Positions 1-6,152 of a stretch of 6,152 nt of DNA are shown here, piece by piece (position 1 is the stretch's first letter; every line of letters starts with the position of its first letter). The notes under the pieces are model-generated. The model ran no database searches. It worked only from the letters and a program-made list of their open reading frames with translations, and was not told the origin of the DNA. Origin of the DNA: a virus. Its lineage: Duplodnaviria; Heunggongvirae; Uroviricota; Caudoviricetes. The stretch is taken from IMG/VR virus record IMGVR_UViG_2671181134_000013, one strand, 5' to 3'. Both the position numbers and the translations under genes were made by a program.

Positions 1-1218
1 ATGAACAAACTGAGCGATACCTTGCTAAGGAAACTTCATGGTAAGCCAGCGGAGAAAAACACGTTTTATAGTGATGGCGGAAACCTGAGCGTGAAATATT
101 TAACATCAGGGAAATTGACCTGGTATTTCACATACAGGGCCGGAACGGGAAGGGAGACACGACCCGAACGCATTAAGCTGGGAAGTTATCCTGATCTGAG
201 CCTGAAAGCAGCCAGGGAAAAAGCCGCACAGTGTCGCACATGGCTGGCTGAGGGGAAAAATCCACGTCATGAGATGAATTACACCGTACAGGAAGCGTTA
301 AAGCCCGTAACGGTTGGCGATGCGCTCACCTACTGGCTTGAGTATTACGTAAAGGAAAACCGCGTGGATTATATCGCCCTGAAAAGGCGACTTAATAATC
401 ACGTAATACAGCAGATTGGTGCTATGCCGCTGGATAAATGCGAGCTACGGCACTGGCTGGCCTGTTTTGACCAGGTGGCAAAGCGAACGCCTGTTACTGC
501 CGGATTCGTGCTACAGGCGTGCAAACAGGCGCTTAAGTTCTGCCGTAGGCGGCGCTATGCAATCAGCAACGTTCTGGACGATCTGAACGTGGCGGACGTT
601 GGGAAAAAACCGGATATAAGCGAACGTGTCTTAAGTAACAAAGAACTTGGCGAATTATTGCAGGCACTGGACAAAAAAATATTCTCCCCTTACTACGTCG
701 CGTTAATCCGCCTCCTGATTGTCTTCGGAGCCAGAACGGTAGAACTGAGGTTATCGGAGATCGGGGAGTGGGATTTTACGGAAATGCTATGGACCGTTCC
801 GAAGGAGCACAGCAAAACGAAGGTCGCAATATTCCGGCCCATACCGGAAGCGATCCTGCCGTTCGTCACGCAGCTGGTGGAGCAGAACAGGCACACGGGC
901 TTATTGCTGGGGGAAGTGAAACAGGAGGCCAGCGTATCGCAGTATGGAAGATTAGCGCACAGGAGGCTTAATCATCCTCACTGGTCACTACATGACATCC
1001 GGCGCACCTTTACAACGATGCTGAACGATTTAGGCGTGGATCCTCACGTCGTGGAGCAGCTTACAGGCCACCAGATGCCAGGAATGCAGCGAGTTTATAA
1101 TCATTCCCGTTATCTGGATGCTAAACGCAATGCGCTGGATATGTGGACGGAGCGGTTAGGGATACTGGCGGGAACACATGAAAACGTAACCACGCTACCA
1201 GTAGCCAGAAGAAAATAA
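1..1218 (+). CDS. int: Tyrosine-type site-specific recombinase (P4 / CP4-57-family integrase), 405 aa
   Basis: N-terminus (LSDTLLRKL..GKP....FYSDGGNLSVKY...GKLTWYFTYR...IKLGSYPDLSLKAAREKA) matches the arm-binding domain pattern of P4-type integrases; C-terminus carries the catalytic box HDIRRTF and the tyrosine-containing RVYNHSRYLDAKRNALDMW. ATG is at window position 1, so the promoter, upstream start alternatives and any att/tRNA site are not visible. Stop TAA at 1216-1218. Confidence 0.9.
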   Translation: MNKLSDTLLRKLHGKPAEKNTFYSDGGNLSVKYLTSGKLTWYFTYRAGTGRETRPERIKLGSYPDLSLKAAREKAAQCRTWLAEGKNPRHEMNYTVQEALKPVTVGDALTYWLEYYVKENRVDYIALKRRLNNHVIQQIGAMPLDKCELRHWLACFDQVAKRTPVTAGFVLQACKQALKFCRRRRYAISNVLDDLNVADVGKKPDISERVLSNKELGELLQALDKKIFSPYYVALIRLLIVFGARTVELRLSEIGEWDFTEMLWTVPKEHSKTKVAIFRPIPEAILPFVTQLVEQNRHTGLLLGEVKQEASVSQYGRLAHRRLNHPHWSLHDIRRTFTTMLNDLGVDPHVVEQLTGHQMPGMQRVYNHSRYLDAKRNALDMWTERLGILAGTHENVTTLPVARRK

Positions 1219-3165: not shown

Positions 3166-3379
3166 TGATCGTTTTAATTCCCTGAAACAGGAATTTTCCG
3201 GCGTTCCTGATGATGCGGCTGATGCGCTTTCGTCAATATCTGAAATTATGCGGGTGGCTTTTTTCTTTCTTTGCACTGATGAGCACAGGGATACAGGGCT
3301 AAATATTCTTGATATTGCCGCTAACTATGCTGATTTCGTGACAGAAGTTGTTTTAAGAAAAACGACGGACGGGGATTAA
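3158..3379 (+). CDS. Hypothetical protein, 73 aa (77 aa if ATG 3146; frame open back to 3110)
   Basis: ATG 3158 directly follows the G-run, which could act as a Shine-Dalgarno. Overlaps the upstream stop (TGA 3163-3165) by 8 nt. No recognisable domain. Confidence 0.5.
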   Translation: MRDDRFNSLKQEFSGVPDDAADALSSISEIMRVAFFFLCTDEHRDTGLNILDIAANYADFVTEVVLRKTTDGD

Positions 3380-3380
3380 T

Positions 3381-3614
3381 ATGCGTGATATTTACCTTGA
3401 AACAATAGACCGCGCATTTCTTGCACTTTCTCACAGTGAAAACATGCTGGAAATATTGCGCATATGGCTTGACACGCTTGGAGATAATGAACGCGACAAA
3501 CAAAAATCAAGAATTGCCACGGCATTAATAACGCTACTTGAGCCTGTAATAATGGAACTGCAAAAAATAGATCTATTGCACGACAGATATAAAGAACAGC
3601 ACACCGGAGAATAA
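3381..3614 (+). CDS. Hypothetical protein, 77 aa
   Basis: ATG 3381 is 1 nt after the upstream stop; GGGGA at 3371-3375. No recognisable domain. Confidence 0.55.
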   Translation: MRDIYLETIDRAFLALSHSENMLEILRIWLDTLGDNERDKQKSRIATALITLLEPVIMELQKIDLLHDRYKEQHTGE

Positions 3615-3619
3615 AAATA

Positions 3620-3919
3620 ATGAAACTTAAATATTCTGGCTTAACTGCCAGTGGCAACACTCACCCTAAATTTACGCGCGGTGATATTTACCGCGACCAG
3701 TACGGCGGCACGGTAATGATTAAGGGCGTGGCGGGACGGTGCGTAACTTACCGCCGTGAAGGTTACGAATATGATTGCGTGATGCCTGTTTATCAGTTCC
3801 GGCGTGATTTTTCTCTGGTACAGACCGCGCCGCATAACGTGCCCACCAGCAACGCCAGGGCACGGGCAAACATCCAGAAGCTGAAAACAATGATTAACGG
3901 ATTCAGGGGTAAAAAATGA
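3620..3919 (+). CDS. Hypothetical protein, 99 aa
   Basis: ATG 3620 with GGAGA at 3606-3610. Its stop overlaps the primase start (ATGA at 3916-3919), indicating translational coupling. No recognisable domain. Confidence 0.6.
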   Translation: MKLKYSGLTASGNTHPKFTRGDIYRDQYGGTVMIKGVAGRCVTYRREGYEYDCVMPVYQFRRDFSLVQTAPHNVPTSNARARANIQKLKTMINGFRGKK

Positions 3920-5670
3920 AACTGGCACCGAACGTAAAACAGCAGTCACGCGGCATAAAACACAAAGAAACAGAAGTCATTATTTTTGCGGGTAGTGATG
4001 CCTGGTCACACGCAAAACAATGGCAGGAACATGACGCGCGTATGGCCGGAGATAATGAGCCTCCTGTGTGGCTTGGGGAGCAGCAGTTATCAGAACTGGA
4101 TAAGCTGCAAATTGTGCCGGAAGGCAGAAAATCCGTGCGCATATTCAGGGCCGGATATCTTGCGCCAGTAATGATAAAGGCGATTGGTCAGAAGCTGGCG
4201 GCGGCAGGCGTACAGGATGCAAATTTTTACCCTGATGGTATGCACGGTCAGAAGGTGGAGAACTGGCGCGAATATCTGGCCAGTGAGCGCCAGAATCTTT
4301 CTGATGGGCTGGTTATTGAGCTTCCTGTAAAGCAAAAGGCGCAACTTTCGCAGATGGCGGACAGTGAGCGCGCTCAACTTCTTGCCGGACGATTTGATGG
4401 CGTTTGCGTGCATCCTGAAAGTGAAATCGTTCACGTATGGCGCGGCGGGGTATGGTGTCCGGTCAGCACAATGGAACTTAGCCGCGAAATGGTGGCGATC
4501 TATTCAGAGCACAGGGCCACTTTCAGCAAGCGCGTAATCAATAACGCCGTGGAAGCGTTAAAAGTTATTGCCGAACCAATGGGCGAGCCGTCCGGCGATT
4601 TGCTGCCGTTCGCCAATGGTGCGCTTGACCTGAAAACGGGGGAATTTTCCCCGCACACGCCGGAGAACTGGATCACCACGCACAACGGCATTGAGTACAC
4701 GCCACCAGCACCAGGGGAGAACATCCGCGATAACGCGCCAAACTTTCATAAATGGCTTGAGCACGCAGCCGGAAAAGACCCGCGCAAGATGATGCGTATA
4801 TGTGCCGCGCTGTACATGATTATAGCGAACCGGTACGACTGGCAGATGTTTATTGAGGCCACCGGAGATGGCGGGAGCGGTAAAAGTACATTCACGCACA
4901 TAGCCAGCCTTCTGGCAGGGAAACAGAACACGGTAAGCGCTGAAATGACGTCGCTTGATGATGCTGGTGGACGTGCGCAGGTTGTCGGGAGTCGTCTTAT
5001 CGTCCTGGCTGACCAGCCGAAATATACAGGCGAAGGAACGGGCATCAAGAAAATCACGGGCGGTGACCCCGTGGAAATTAACCCGAAATACGAAAAGCGT
5101 TTCACGGCTGTAATCAGGGCGGTGGTGCTGGCGACCAACAATAACCCGATGATATTCACCGAACGGGCCGGAGGTGTGGCACGTCGTCGCGTGATTTTCC
5201 GTTTCGACAATATCGTCAGTGAGGCCGAAAAAGACAGGGAGCTACCGGAAAAGATTGCGGCTGAAATCCCTGTCATTATCCGCCGATTGCTGGCGAACTT
5301 TACCGACTCTGAGAAAGCACGGGCTTTACTACTGGAACAGCGTGACGGTGATGAAGCTCTGGCAATAAAGCAACAGACGGATCCGGTTATTGAGTTTTGC
5401 CAGTTCCTGAATTTTCTGGAGGAAGCACGCGGCCTGATGATGGGCGGCGGTGGCGATTCAGTGAAGTACACGACCAGAAACAGCCTTTACCGCGTCTATC
5501 TGGCGTTTATGGCGTACGCAGGCAGGAGCAAACCGCTAAACGTAAATGACTTTGGCAAGGCTATGAAGCCAGCCGCGAAAGTTTACGGACATGAATATAT
5601 TACGCGGAAAGTTAAGGGAGTAACGCAGACTAACGCAATAACAACAGACGAGTGCGACGCGTTTTTATAA
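3916..5670 (+). CDS. Replication initiation protein: P4 alpha-like primase-helicase (D5_N / primase-C-terminal region plus SF3-type NTPase), 584 aa
   Basis: Walker A GDGGSGKST (about 4864-4890), Walker B-like hydrophobic strand LIVLADQ (about 4996-5016), and upstream PFANGALDLKTGEF...HTPENWITT typical of the D5_N/P4-primase C-terminal family. GGGG Shine-Dalgarno 6 nt before the ATG. The N-terminal 300 aa has no CxxC zinc motif that I can see. Confidence 0.88.
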   Translation: MKLAPNVKQQSRGIKHKETEVIIFAGSDAWSHAKQWQEHDARMAGDNEPPVWLGEQQLSELDKLQIVPEGRKSVRIFRAGYLAPVMIKAIGQKLAAAGVQDANFYPDGMHGQKVENWREYLASERQNLSDGLVIELPVKQKAQLSQMADSERAQLLAGRFDGVCVHPESEIVHVWRGGVWCPVSTMELSREMVAIYSEHRATFSKRVINNAVEALKVIAEPMGEPSGDLLPFANGALDLKTGEFSPHTPENWITTHNGIEYTPPAPGENIRDNAPNFHKWLEHAAGKDPRKMMRICAALYMIIANRYDWQMFIEATGDGGSGKSTFTHIASLLAGKQNTVSAEMTSLDDAGGRAQVVGSRLIVLADQPKYTGEGTGIKKITGGDPVEINPKYEKRFTAVIRAVVLATNNNPMIFTERAGGVARRRVIFRFDNIVSEAEKDRELPEKIAAEIPVIIRRLLANFTDSEKARALLLEQRDGDEALAIKQQTDPVIEFCQFLNFLEEARGLMMGGGGDSVKYTTRNSLYRVYLAFMAYAGRSKPLNVNDFGKAMKPAAKVYGHEYITRKVKGVTQTNAITTDECDAFL

Positions 5671-5683
5671 TTTTTTGTAATTG

Positions 5684-5910
5684 CTGTCTACCCTGTCTAC
5701 CTGAATAAAGAAAGATACATTTAATTCAGTGCATTAAGTTAGGTAGATAGCCTTTTTTTACTGTCTACCCACTATCTACCCTCTCTACCTGATTTTACCT
5801 GAATCAGACAGGGAGGTAGACACGGGGTAGATAGCGGATAAAAGCACTCTACCCCGCTGAAAGCCGCGCCATTACTGGCATGAGGGCCACTAAGGTAGAT
5901 AAGGTAGACA
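5684..5910. repeat. Iteron array, putative origin of replication: 11 copies of octamer T(G/A)TCTACC in both orientations around an AT-rich spacer
   Basis: Forward copies at 5685, 5694, 5762, 5773 (TATCTACC), 5782 (TCTCTACC) and 5848 (core TCTACC). Reverse copies GGTAGA(C/T)A at 5742, 5815, 5826, 5894, 5903. AT-rich segment 5703-5740. Lies immediately 3' of the primase-helicase gene. Confidence 0.6.
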
Positions 5911-5958
5911 AGGGGAGGCACAACTCAAAACTTTTTAAACGAGGGGGTAAAAATAAAT

Positions 5959-6152
5959 ATGCACACTTCAGGGAAATTTAATAAATCACTCAAAAAACGC
6001 AGAGACAGAACAGAACCGAAATATCGCGCGTTAGACATGACAGAGCACGCTTTAAAGGTGGCAATCAGAACGATAGACCGCCACGCGGGGGAAGGATACG
6101 CGAAAGCACATCCCGAACTGATAAGCGCATTCATGACCACGACGGCGGCAAA
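5959..6152 (+). CDS. Hypothetical protein, 5' part only (runs off the window end)
   Basis: ATG 5959 with GAGGGGG at 5941-5947 (11-nt spacing, slightly long). Frame is open to the last base; translation starts MHTSGKFNKSLKKRRDRTEPKYRALDMTEHALKVAIRTIDRHAGEGYAKAHPELISAF. Absent from the supplied ORF track, presumably because it has no stop. Confidence 0.4.
   Translation, partial: MHTSGKFNKSLKKRRDRTEPKYRALDMTEHALKVAIRTIDRHAGEGYAKAHPELISAFMTTTAA

Follow-up and report, generated by a model that had tools for sequence, protein, structure and literature searches.

The stretch of DNA analysed here (the window, 6,152 bp) comes from an E. coli PICI, a phage satellite, and carries a tyrosine integrase gene, an alpA-like gene, a DUF4222 gene and pri-rep, the gene for a 584-residue protein that we call Pri-Rep. 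Over its full length the window matches E. coli chromosomes (up to 98.7%), and the annotations of the matching genomes place it in a 10-12 kb island with all genes rightward, in the order int, AlpA-like HTH gene, Icd-like genes, DUF4222, 'DNA primase family protein', hypothetical gene, SSB, PerC, capsid and head-decoration genes and, sometimes, terS. In the Gram-negative PICI layout, int, alpA and pri-rep are rightward and are followed downstream by phage-interference or capsid genes (Fillol-Salom et al. 2018, PMC6092414), and this is the arrangement that we find in the window and in near-identical islands, going by the Pfam domains of the window ORFs and by the island annotations. A near-identity search found the segment 3' of pri-rep, which is the subject of this analysis, in 522 of 5426 complete E. 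coli genomes, and a more distant search in 571 (~10%); it was always chromosomal.

Within that segment lies a dense array of short repeats (iterons) at 5685-5910, which starts 15 bp past the pri-rep stop codon and stops 48 bp short of the next ORF (ATG at 5959), a gene that is followed in annotated relatives by an SSB gene (Table 1). An exact search of both strands of the 6152-bp window returned nine copies of the octamer T(G/A)TCTACC (TRTCTACC), every one of them inside the array, against a chance expectation of 0.17 matches and with none of 200 shuffles reaching nine. The six-nucleotide core TCTACC occurs 11 times in the array, in both orientations, and once elsewhere in the window, at position 738 inside the integrase gene. 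A sequence-only reading of this locus had counted eleven copies of the octamer; that number is right for the core, but the octamer as stated accounts for nine, the other two being the variants that form iterons 6 and 9. We also observed a degenerate twelfth copy, ATTTTACC, at 5792-5799, where it would be the fourth member of the plus-strand group formed by iterons 4-6; Xenorhabdus japonica has an intact copy at the same place.

Table 1. Features of the window, with positions counted from its first nucleotide
Feature	Position	Strand	Remarks
Tyrosine integrase ORF	1-1218		
DUF4222 protein ORF	3620-3919		
pri-rep (584 aa)	3916-5670	+	SF3 helicase-initiator of the P4-alpha / SaPI Rep kind
Pri-Rep C-terminal domain (aa 488-579)	5377-5652	+	phmmer match to PDB 1KA8 (P4 alpha C-terminal domain), E 6.9e-7
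Iterons 1 and 2	5685-5692, 5694-5701	+	TGTCTACC both; direct repeats 9 bp apart, left flank of AT-rich spacer
AT-rich spacer	5702-5741		23% GC; candidate DNA-unwinding element; sequence varies between genera, AT-rich in most
Iteron 3	5742-5749	-	GGTAGATA on + strand, TATCTACC on - strand; faces iterons 1 and 2 across AT-rich spacer
Iterons 4-6	5762-5769, 5773-5780, 5782-5789	+	TGTCTACC, TATCTACC and variant TCTCTACC; spacings 11 and 9 bp
Iterons 7 and 8	5815-5822, 5826-5833	-	TGTCTACC and TATCTACC
Iteron 9	5846-5853	+	variant ACTCTACC
GC-rich block, non-iteron	5856-5882		CTGAAAGCCGCGCCATTACTGGCATGA; contains small dyad GCCA-N4-TGGC
Iterons 10 and 11	5894-5901, 5903-5910	-	TATCTACC and TGTCTACC; 9 bp apart
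Leader, ribosome-binding site and start codon (5959) of next gene	5925-5961	+	ribosome-binding site AAAACTTTTTAAACGAGGGGGTAAAAATAAAT; conserved in alignments

Along the plus strand the iteron orientations read ++ - +++ -- + --, adjacent iterons stand 9 or 11 bp apart from start to start, and the array has an internal periodicity of ~88 bp. The earlier description of two clusters flanking an AT-rich stretch was right about the stretch itself, which is 40 bp long, but the copies divide unevenly around it, with two on the left (both on the plus strand) and nine on the right, the first of which is on the minus strand. The array is better described as three convergent modules, whose spacers measure 40 bp (23% GC), 25 bp (40% GC) and 40 bp (60% GC). 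A search of 5660-5965 returned no DnaA box (allowing one mismatch), no IHF consensus, no GATC site and no 13-mer, and the absence of the first three fits a self-loading initiator. Rfam families had no match anywhere in the window.

Next, we examined the protein encoded immediately upstream. Pri-Rep carries the Pfam domains D5_N, DUF5906 and Pox_D5; its helicase core matches SaPI5 PriRep (PDB 7OLA, E 1.4e-14), and BLASTP aligns it to P4 alpha at 40% identity over alpha residues 324-762 only. By similarity to the C-terminal domain of P4 alpha, which we take to be an origin-binding winged helix, residues 488-579 are probably the origin-binding domain of Pri-Rep and the reader of the iterons. The N-terminal part is different: residues 1-140 gave no alignment to the N-terminal region of P4 alpha and no Pfam, NCBIfam or PDB sequence match, with weak matches to PHROG 'DNA primase' families only, while the NCBIfam model TIGR01613 ('primase_Cterm') falls on residues 229-495, in the helicase part, at 108.5 bits against a cut-off of 108.7. 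With the N-terminal profiles negative and TIGR01613 on the helicase part, a primase activity has no sequence support; no primase domain is detectable in Pri-Rep, and 'primase-helicase' is an annotation label only. The locus had been said to encode a P4-alpha-like primase-helicase, and the likeness holds for the helicase and origin-binding parts, which match alpha 324-762, but not for a recognisable primase domain.

We then compared the window with EcCICFT073, a published E. coli PICI that we located by the coordinates given in the supplement of PMC6092414 and took as our locus L004. The two Pri-Rep proteins are identical at 577 of 584 residues (99%), and the 288-bp EcCICFT073 intergenic region aligns to the window without a gap, with all 11 iterons kept and ~5% of bases differing (an ori ~95% identical). 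Just two iterons differ between the elements, each by no more than a G/A swap at octamer position 2, confirming the degeneracy of this position. In both elements the array lies directly 3' of pri-rep and its iterons agree in order, orientation and spacing; the AT-rich spacer and the GC-rich block are shared as well. The chromosomal site is another matter, EcCICFT073 being at ycfD-phoQ whereas the closest full-length match of the window, JNEC-KY179, has its island inside tqsA and differs in its accessory genes.

This near-identity matters because the EcCICFT073 origin was described and tested in 2018: a thermosensitive pKO3-blue carrying its pri-ori region gave colonies at 44 °C, the delta-pri derivative gave none, and with the delta-ori derivative colony numbers were 'significantly reduced' (PMC6092414). 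The same paper named the AT-rich region as a possible melting site. We mapped the cloning primers listed in the PMC6092414 supplement onto L004 and the window, which placed the pri-ori forward primer at L004 5198-5218, the end of the delta-ori reverse primer at L004 7000 (window 5674) and the pri-ori reverse primer at L004 7287 to ~7308 (~window 5980; as printed, this primer is one base off the genome, probably a PDF artefact). By this mapping, the segment deleted in delta-ori corresponds to window 5675 to ~5980 (~300 bp), so that the whole array, including its AT-rich spacer and GC-rich block, is lost in one piece with the next gene's leader.

Since a near-identical origin has been described and tested, the array is the already known EcCICFT073-type PICI origin, and its identification here is correct but not new. 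The earlier proposal of a satellite iteron origin is thereby borne out, through a pri-rep/ori module that sustained replication with an origin 95% identical and an initiator 99% identical to those of the window (PMC6092414), and through an array that lies, as in other Gram-negative PICIs, directly 3' of the pri-rep stop, which ends at 5670. We give a probability of about 0.9 to the reading that 5685-5910 is the vegetative replication origin of an EcCICFT073-type Gram-negative PICI and that it works along the following lines. Helper phage would induce AlpA, the rightward operon would be transcribed and Pri-Rep would be made. Its C-terminal domain would then bind the TCTACC-core octamers, which are set out convergently in pairs and triplets with helical-turn spacing, and Pri-Rep may oligomerise on the array, melt the AT-rich spacer and load itself, without DnaA, as the replicative 3'-5' SF3 helicase. 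Priming and elongation would fall to host enzymes, probably including the host primase, or else to an unrecognised activity of the N-terminal region. We infer octamer binding, the melting site, self-loading and the primer source from homology to P4 alpha and SaPI Rep; the literature searched gave no direct demonstration of octamer binding by an E. coli PICI Pri-Rep, and the lopsided distribution of iterons (two left, nine right) makes the melting site less than certain.

Repeats of this kind might also serve other steps of a satellite's life cycle. Satellites carry repeated cis sites for terminases and integrases, and a packaging (cos or pac) or recombination site could in principle look like this array. 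Integrase arm sites, however, are expected near the island ends by int, not 3' of pri-rep, and the EcCICFT073 cos sites (PMC6092414 supplement) map to L004 10559 and 11288, over 3 kb further downstream, and the window contains neither; we consider this assignment exceedingly improbable.

To place the origin in a wider context, we compared it with related loci, using E. coli genome matches and a related-locus scan as the diversity sample, as a protein homologue search gave ~99% identical proteins only. Seven diverged E. coli islands, 69-87% identical in nucleotide sequence across the 3' end of pri and the ori, each carry 9-12 CTACC cores, and six of the seven have the layout of the window, the rearranged one being ETEC1738. 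ETEC1738 also has a different gene downstream of the array. Lineages differ in the two bases 5' of the core, with T(G/A)TCTACC in the window, CFT073, BH100N, A0 34/86 and ETEC1738, and (C)CTCTACC in O157-type islands. We also considered whether co-resident PICIs always differ in iteron allele, and saw no strict exclusion: NZ_CP082775.1 carries both a TR-type and a CC-type ori, and NZ_CP032801.1 carries two CC-type-like oris.

Extending the scan to the Gammaproteobacteria, with one genome per species and the 400 bp 3' of the stop codon inspected, we obtained 80 related loci, most of which carry 6-13 copies of a short repeat whose sequence tracks the family of the C-terminal domain. The repeat is of the TCTACC class in Shigella, Rosenbergiella, several Xenorhabdus, Symbiopectobacterium, Raoultella, Pantoea and Yersinia; GGTGAACA (P4 type) in Klebsiella, Citrobacter, Raoultella, Pluralibacter, Kluyvera and Pectobacterium; ATGAACAC in Escherichia sp. 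ESNIH1 and Edwardsiella; GGTATACA in Pseudocitrobacter; ACTGTCCG in Serratia; and AGTGACC or CCCTACC in Aeromonas. Most TCTACC-class loci share the layout ++-+++--+-- at 45-60% protein identity, and in most of them iterons recur at offsets near 18, 27, 71, 95, 105 and 114 from the stop codon and at the final pair. The offsets of 18 and 27 nt (iterons 1 and 2) are kept in most TCTACC-class loci of other genera, and most E. coli and Shigella loci in the comparison have iterons 10 and 11 at the same 224 and 233.

Column-wise conservation showed the same pattern. In a 10-sequence alignment the majority frequency was 0.93 in core columns versus 0.61 in non-core columns (Mann-Whitney p ~1e-24), and 0.92 versus 0.62 when comparisons were limited to those between genera; this test is partly circular, the alignment being anchored on the repeats, whereas the stop-codon offsets are independent of any alignment. 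The core of iteron 3 is 100% conserved in the 10-sequence alignment, and that of iteron 9 is the least conserved of the array (0.70, alignment A3). The GC-rich block has columns at least 90% conserved across genera (5857-5858, 5860-5862, 5864-5865, 5868, 5876-5878 and 5881), while the other spacers diverge. A conserved single-stranded DNA hairpin in the 5854-5893 spacer was considered and rejected: clear stems are present in Rosenbergiella YN46 and CFT073 and absent in the window and in O157-type islands. By these comparisons, the array layout is conserved from E. coli to Xenorhabdus and Rosenbergiella, with a conserved GC-rich block inside it, and we found no report of either in the literature searched. 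Alignment to homologous islands had been proposed as a check on the origin, and it came out in its favour, both in the gapless retention of the 11 iterons in EcCICFT073 and in the layout kept by most TCTACC-class loci.

The repeats might instead serve transcriptional control. The array immediately precedes the conserved leader of the next ORF, and iteron-binding initiators often autoregulate, a habit that would suit repeats acting as operators or enhancers of the downstream operon (hypothetical protein, SSB, PerC, capsid), bound by Pri-Rep or by another island regulator, with a secondary role in replication. Our search of the array region for a sigma-70-like forward promoter and for a terminator-like site found neither, and these two negatives pull in opposite directions: the lack of a terminator between pri-rep and the downstream genes is in keeping with such control, but the lack of a forward promoter is not. 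Moreover, the array follows the helicase C-terminal domain across genera whatever gene lies downstream, as in ETEC1738, Gram-negative PICIs are described as transcribed unidirectionally from the alpA promoter, and deletion of the region impairs replication (PMC6092414 for the last two points). We therefore regard a primarily regulatory array as very improbable and retain the replication origin as the reading of this locus.

The scan also revealed that the bases flanking the iteron core vary together with the protein. E. coli Pri-Rep groups differ at residues 547, 548 and 550, with N-D/E-F-G in the group with TRTCTACC iterons versus A-E/D-F-S in the O157-type group. In the seven lineages whose octamers mostly have a purine at position 2, residue 550 is G or A; in those with mostly C there (the E. 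coli AEFS type, Symbiopectobacterium, Rosenbergiella epipactidis and Aeromonas allosaccharophila), it is S. The pairing has no exceptions in ~11 lineages, although part of this signal could come from co-inheritance alone, the C-terminal domain and the ori being physically linked. A comparable switch is seen between two further loci, L015 and L016, whose C-terminal 140 residues are 96% identical, with five substitutions that include N to T and M to V in RKNRGMVTNV, and whose iterons are GGTATACAC and GGTGTTCAT, respectively, in the same layout, with intermediate copies in L016. Together, the tracking of repeat sequence by domain family, the covariation and the L015/L016 switch lend indirect support to the view that the C-terminal domain itself reads the iterons. 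A single-sequence AlphaFold2 model of Pri-Rep residues 470-584, with a pLDDT of 57, was not good enough to show where residue 550 lies with respect to the recognition helix. Covariation of the iteron flank bases with residue 550, as seen in these comparisons, was not reported in the literature that we searched.

The residue 550 pairing and the iteron difference between L015 and L016 lead us to a more tentative reading, one that we would put at somewhat worse than even odds: that the E. coli PICI ori and the P4 crr and ori are branches of one homologous initiator-iteron module, whose specificity is re-tuned by changes in one to three residues of the C-terminal domain and a concerted change in every iteron. 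If this is true, satellites would fall into orthogonal replicon classes, so that several could be present in one cell without cross-activation or competition, and recognition would follow a simple code, open to engineering.

As the cis site for amplification of widespread E. coli phage satellites after helper-phage induction, satellites that interfere with phages and bear virulence regulators, PerC among them, the array has a significance beyond this one element. Recognising it is useful for annotation, given that the region is unannotated in RefSeq, and helps to define the minimal replicon. What remains of value beyond the published origin is comparative, namely the cross-genus layout, the covariation between iterons and C-terminal domain and the conserved GC-rich block, all of them modest additions; with the seeming lack of a primase domain, they bear on origin recognition and priming.

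Among known systems, we compared the window first with P4, drawing on the GenBank annotation of NC_001609 and on PDB 1KA8. Pri-Rep and P4 alpha are homologous in the helicase and in the C-terminal origin-binding domain (40% identity; 1KA8), and both elements have octamer iterons in both orientations, with neighbours 9-11 bp apart and a cluster directly 3' of the initiator gene. In P4, 'ori type 1 repeats' are annotated in crr (4291-4590), which lies directly 3' of alpha, and in ori (9310-9413) (NC_001609). We find that this type-1 repeat is TGTTCACC, present in 11 exact copies that all lie within crr or ori, much as the sequence-only reading had described it, a T-G-T-rich octamer ending in ACC; a literature text search for TGTTCACC returned unrelated primer sequences only. 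That reading had also suggested a specificity related to that of P4 but distinct from it, and this too is upheld: TGTCTACC agrees with TGTTCACC at six of eight positions, with positions 4 and 5 swapped, the window contains no exact copy of TGTTCACC (and two one-mismatch copies, below chance expectation), and P4 contains no TRTCTACC. At the level of sequence, then, the P4 and PICI iterons are orthogonal.

The position of the array raises the question of which P4 cluster it corresponds to. P4 crr is built of two 120-bp repeats, which the ~88-bp internal repeat of the array recalls, and it is crr that lies directly 3' of alpha, with the true ori ~4.5 kb away, so that the PICI array occupies the crr-equivalent place. 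On this analogy the array would be a crr-like cis enhancer, bound by the initiator, with unwinding and initiation taking place at another iteron cluster of the island. P4, however, needs its two separated clusters, whereas the whole EcCICFT073 island has a single TCTACC cluster, its one remaining TCTACC being in int; and for plasmid replication the pri-ori fragment (L004 5198 to ~7308) suffices on its own (PMC6092414). A single cluster and a sufficient pri-ori fragment make a P4-style division into ori and crr unlikely, and we give this alternative little credence beside an origin at the array itself. P4 differs further in that alpha has an N-terminal primase domain, which in Pri-Rep can be neither aligned nor detected, and in that a terminator stands between alpha and crr, of which we found no counterpart in the window.

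Classical iteron plasmids (RepA, pi and TrfA; pSC101, R6K, RK2, P1 and F) resemble the window in having initiator repeats beside an AT-rich unwinding element. Their iterons are 17-22 bp direct repeats, their Rep is not a helicase, and they use DnaA boxes and DnaB/DnaC; the window, unlike them, has 8-bp repeats in both orientations, no DnaA box nearby and an SF3 helicase as its initiator, and so does not have a classical iteron plasmid origin.

The SaPIs are nearer in plan. SaPI Reps are self-loading SF3 helicases with a C-terminal winged helix that binds iterons directly downstream of rep, and a SaPI ori comprises 6-12 iterons around an AT-rich region, at least two on each side and in opposite directions (PMC9371898). 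The iteron sequence of the window is unrelated to theirs, similarity to SaPI Rep is detected in the helicase core only, and the C-terminal domain of Pri-Rep is closer to that of P4 alpha than to that of SaPI Rep. In organisation, the window nevertheless has what a SaPI-type ori has: iterons just 3' of the initiator gene, 11 copies around an AT-rich region inside the array, two on its left, both on the plus strand, and nine on its right, the first of these on the minus strand, and an SF3 initiator with a homologous helicase core (7OLA).

In the window, iterons of the form T(G/A)TCTACC accompany a Pri-Rep (the 584-aa SF3 helicase-initiator) that carries N-D-F-G at residues 547-550; in the O157-type E. 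coli PICIs (L007-L010), the iterons are CCTCTACC and these residues read A-E/D-F-S. Symbiopectobacterium, Rosenbergiella epipactidis and Aeromonas likewise combine S550 with a C at the second octamer position. We also compared two related gammaproteobacterial loci, L015 and L016 (both 3264-3600), whose alpha-like proteins are 96% identical over their C-terminal 140 aa, with two of the five substitutions falling within RKNRGMVTNV. The array layout is identical at the two loci, with iterons GGTATACAC in L015 vs. GGTGTTCAT in L016, and L016 retains intermediate copies (GGTATACAT and GGTATTCAT). This pair looks like an iteron specificity switch caught mid-course.

Two PICIs of this family can reside in a single E. 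coli genome, such as NZ_CP082775.1 (at 1657654 and 2039886) and NZ_CP032801.1 (at 2317310 and 3702553). Their iteron alleles, named by the two bases 5' of the TCTACC core, are sometimes unlike (TR-type with CC-type) and sometimes alike; co-resident islands thus do not strictly exclude one another by ori type.

More divergent arrangements were also observed. The island of E. coli ETEC1738 (L012 2861-3176) has the same iterons in a rearranged, apparently permuted order, with a perfect hairpin of 12-bp stem (CTGAATCCCTTG...CAAGGGATTCAG) between iteron groups and a truncated RepA-family helicase pseudogene following the array. At many Xenorhabdus and Photorhabdus loci (L033-L067), alpha-like genes encode the C-terminal motif ERPLTLTKFGESLPKIM; the 400 bp downstream of these genes hold just 2-4 weak repeats (GATGTATA), and the origin of these loci may lie elsewhere or be differently organised.

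At the other end of Pri-Rep, residues 1-140 are the most variable among relatives, have no match in Pfam, NCBIfam or PDB sequences, and do not align with the P4 alpha primase domain. The protein is annotated as a 'DNA primase family protein', and the NCBIfam match fitting this name, TIGR01613 (primase_Cterm), lies in the helicase part.

Features of the window discussed here, by window position
Feature	Position	Detail
299-aa ORF	1829-2728	between alpA-like gene and Icd-like genes
Pri-Rep aa 1-140	3916-4335	
Pri-Rep aa 547-550	5554-5565	
Periodic stretch of the iteron array	5684-5915	
Similar pair in array	5684-5704 and 5772-5792	
Similar pair in array	5814-5827 and 5902-5915	
GC-rich non-iteron block	5856-5882	CTGAAAGCCGCGCCATTACTGGCATGA; contains dyad GCCA-N4-TGGC

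The 299-aa ORF, possibly a variable accessory gene, has no Pfam match and is missing from both EcCICFT073 (a published E. coli PICI) and 2012EL-2448; the closest genome carries it with the annotation 'hypothetical'.

Within the array, the adjoining spacers diverge among E. coli, Xenorhabdus and Rosenbergiella, but the GC-rich block is conserved across them. A search of this block for a hairpin found no consistent one, and the block may serve as a host-factor or priming site. The array as a whole has an internal period of ~88 bp, seen in its two similar pairs, which suggests an ancient tandem duplication; P4 crr, with its two repeats of 120 bp, offers a parallel.
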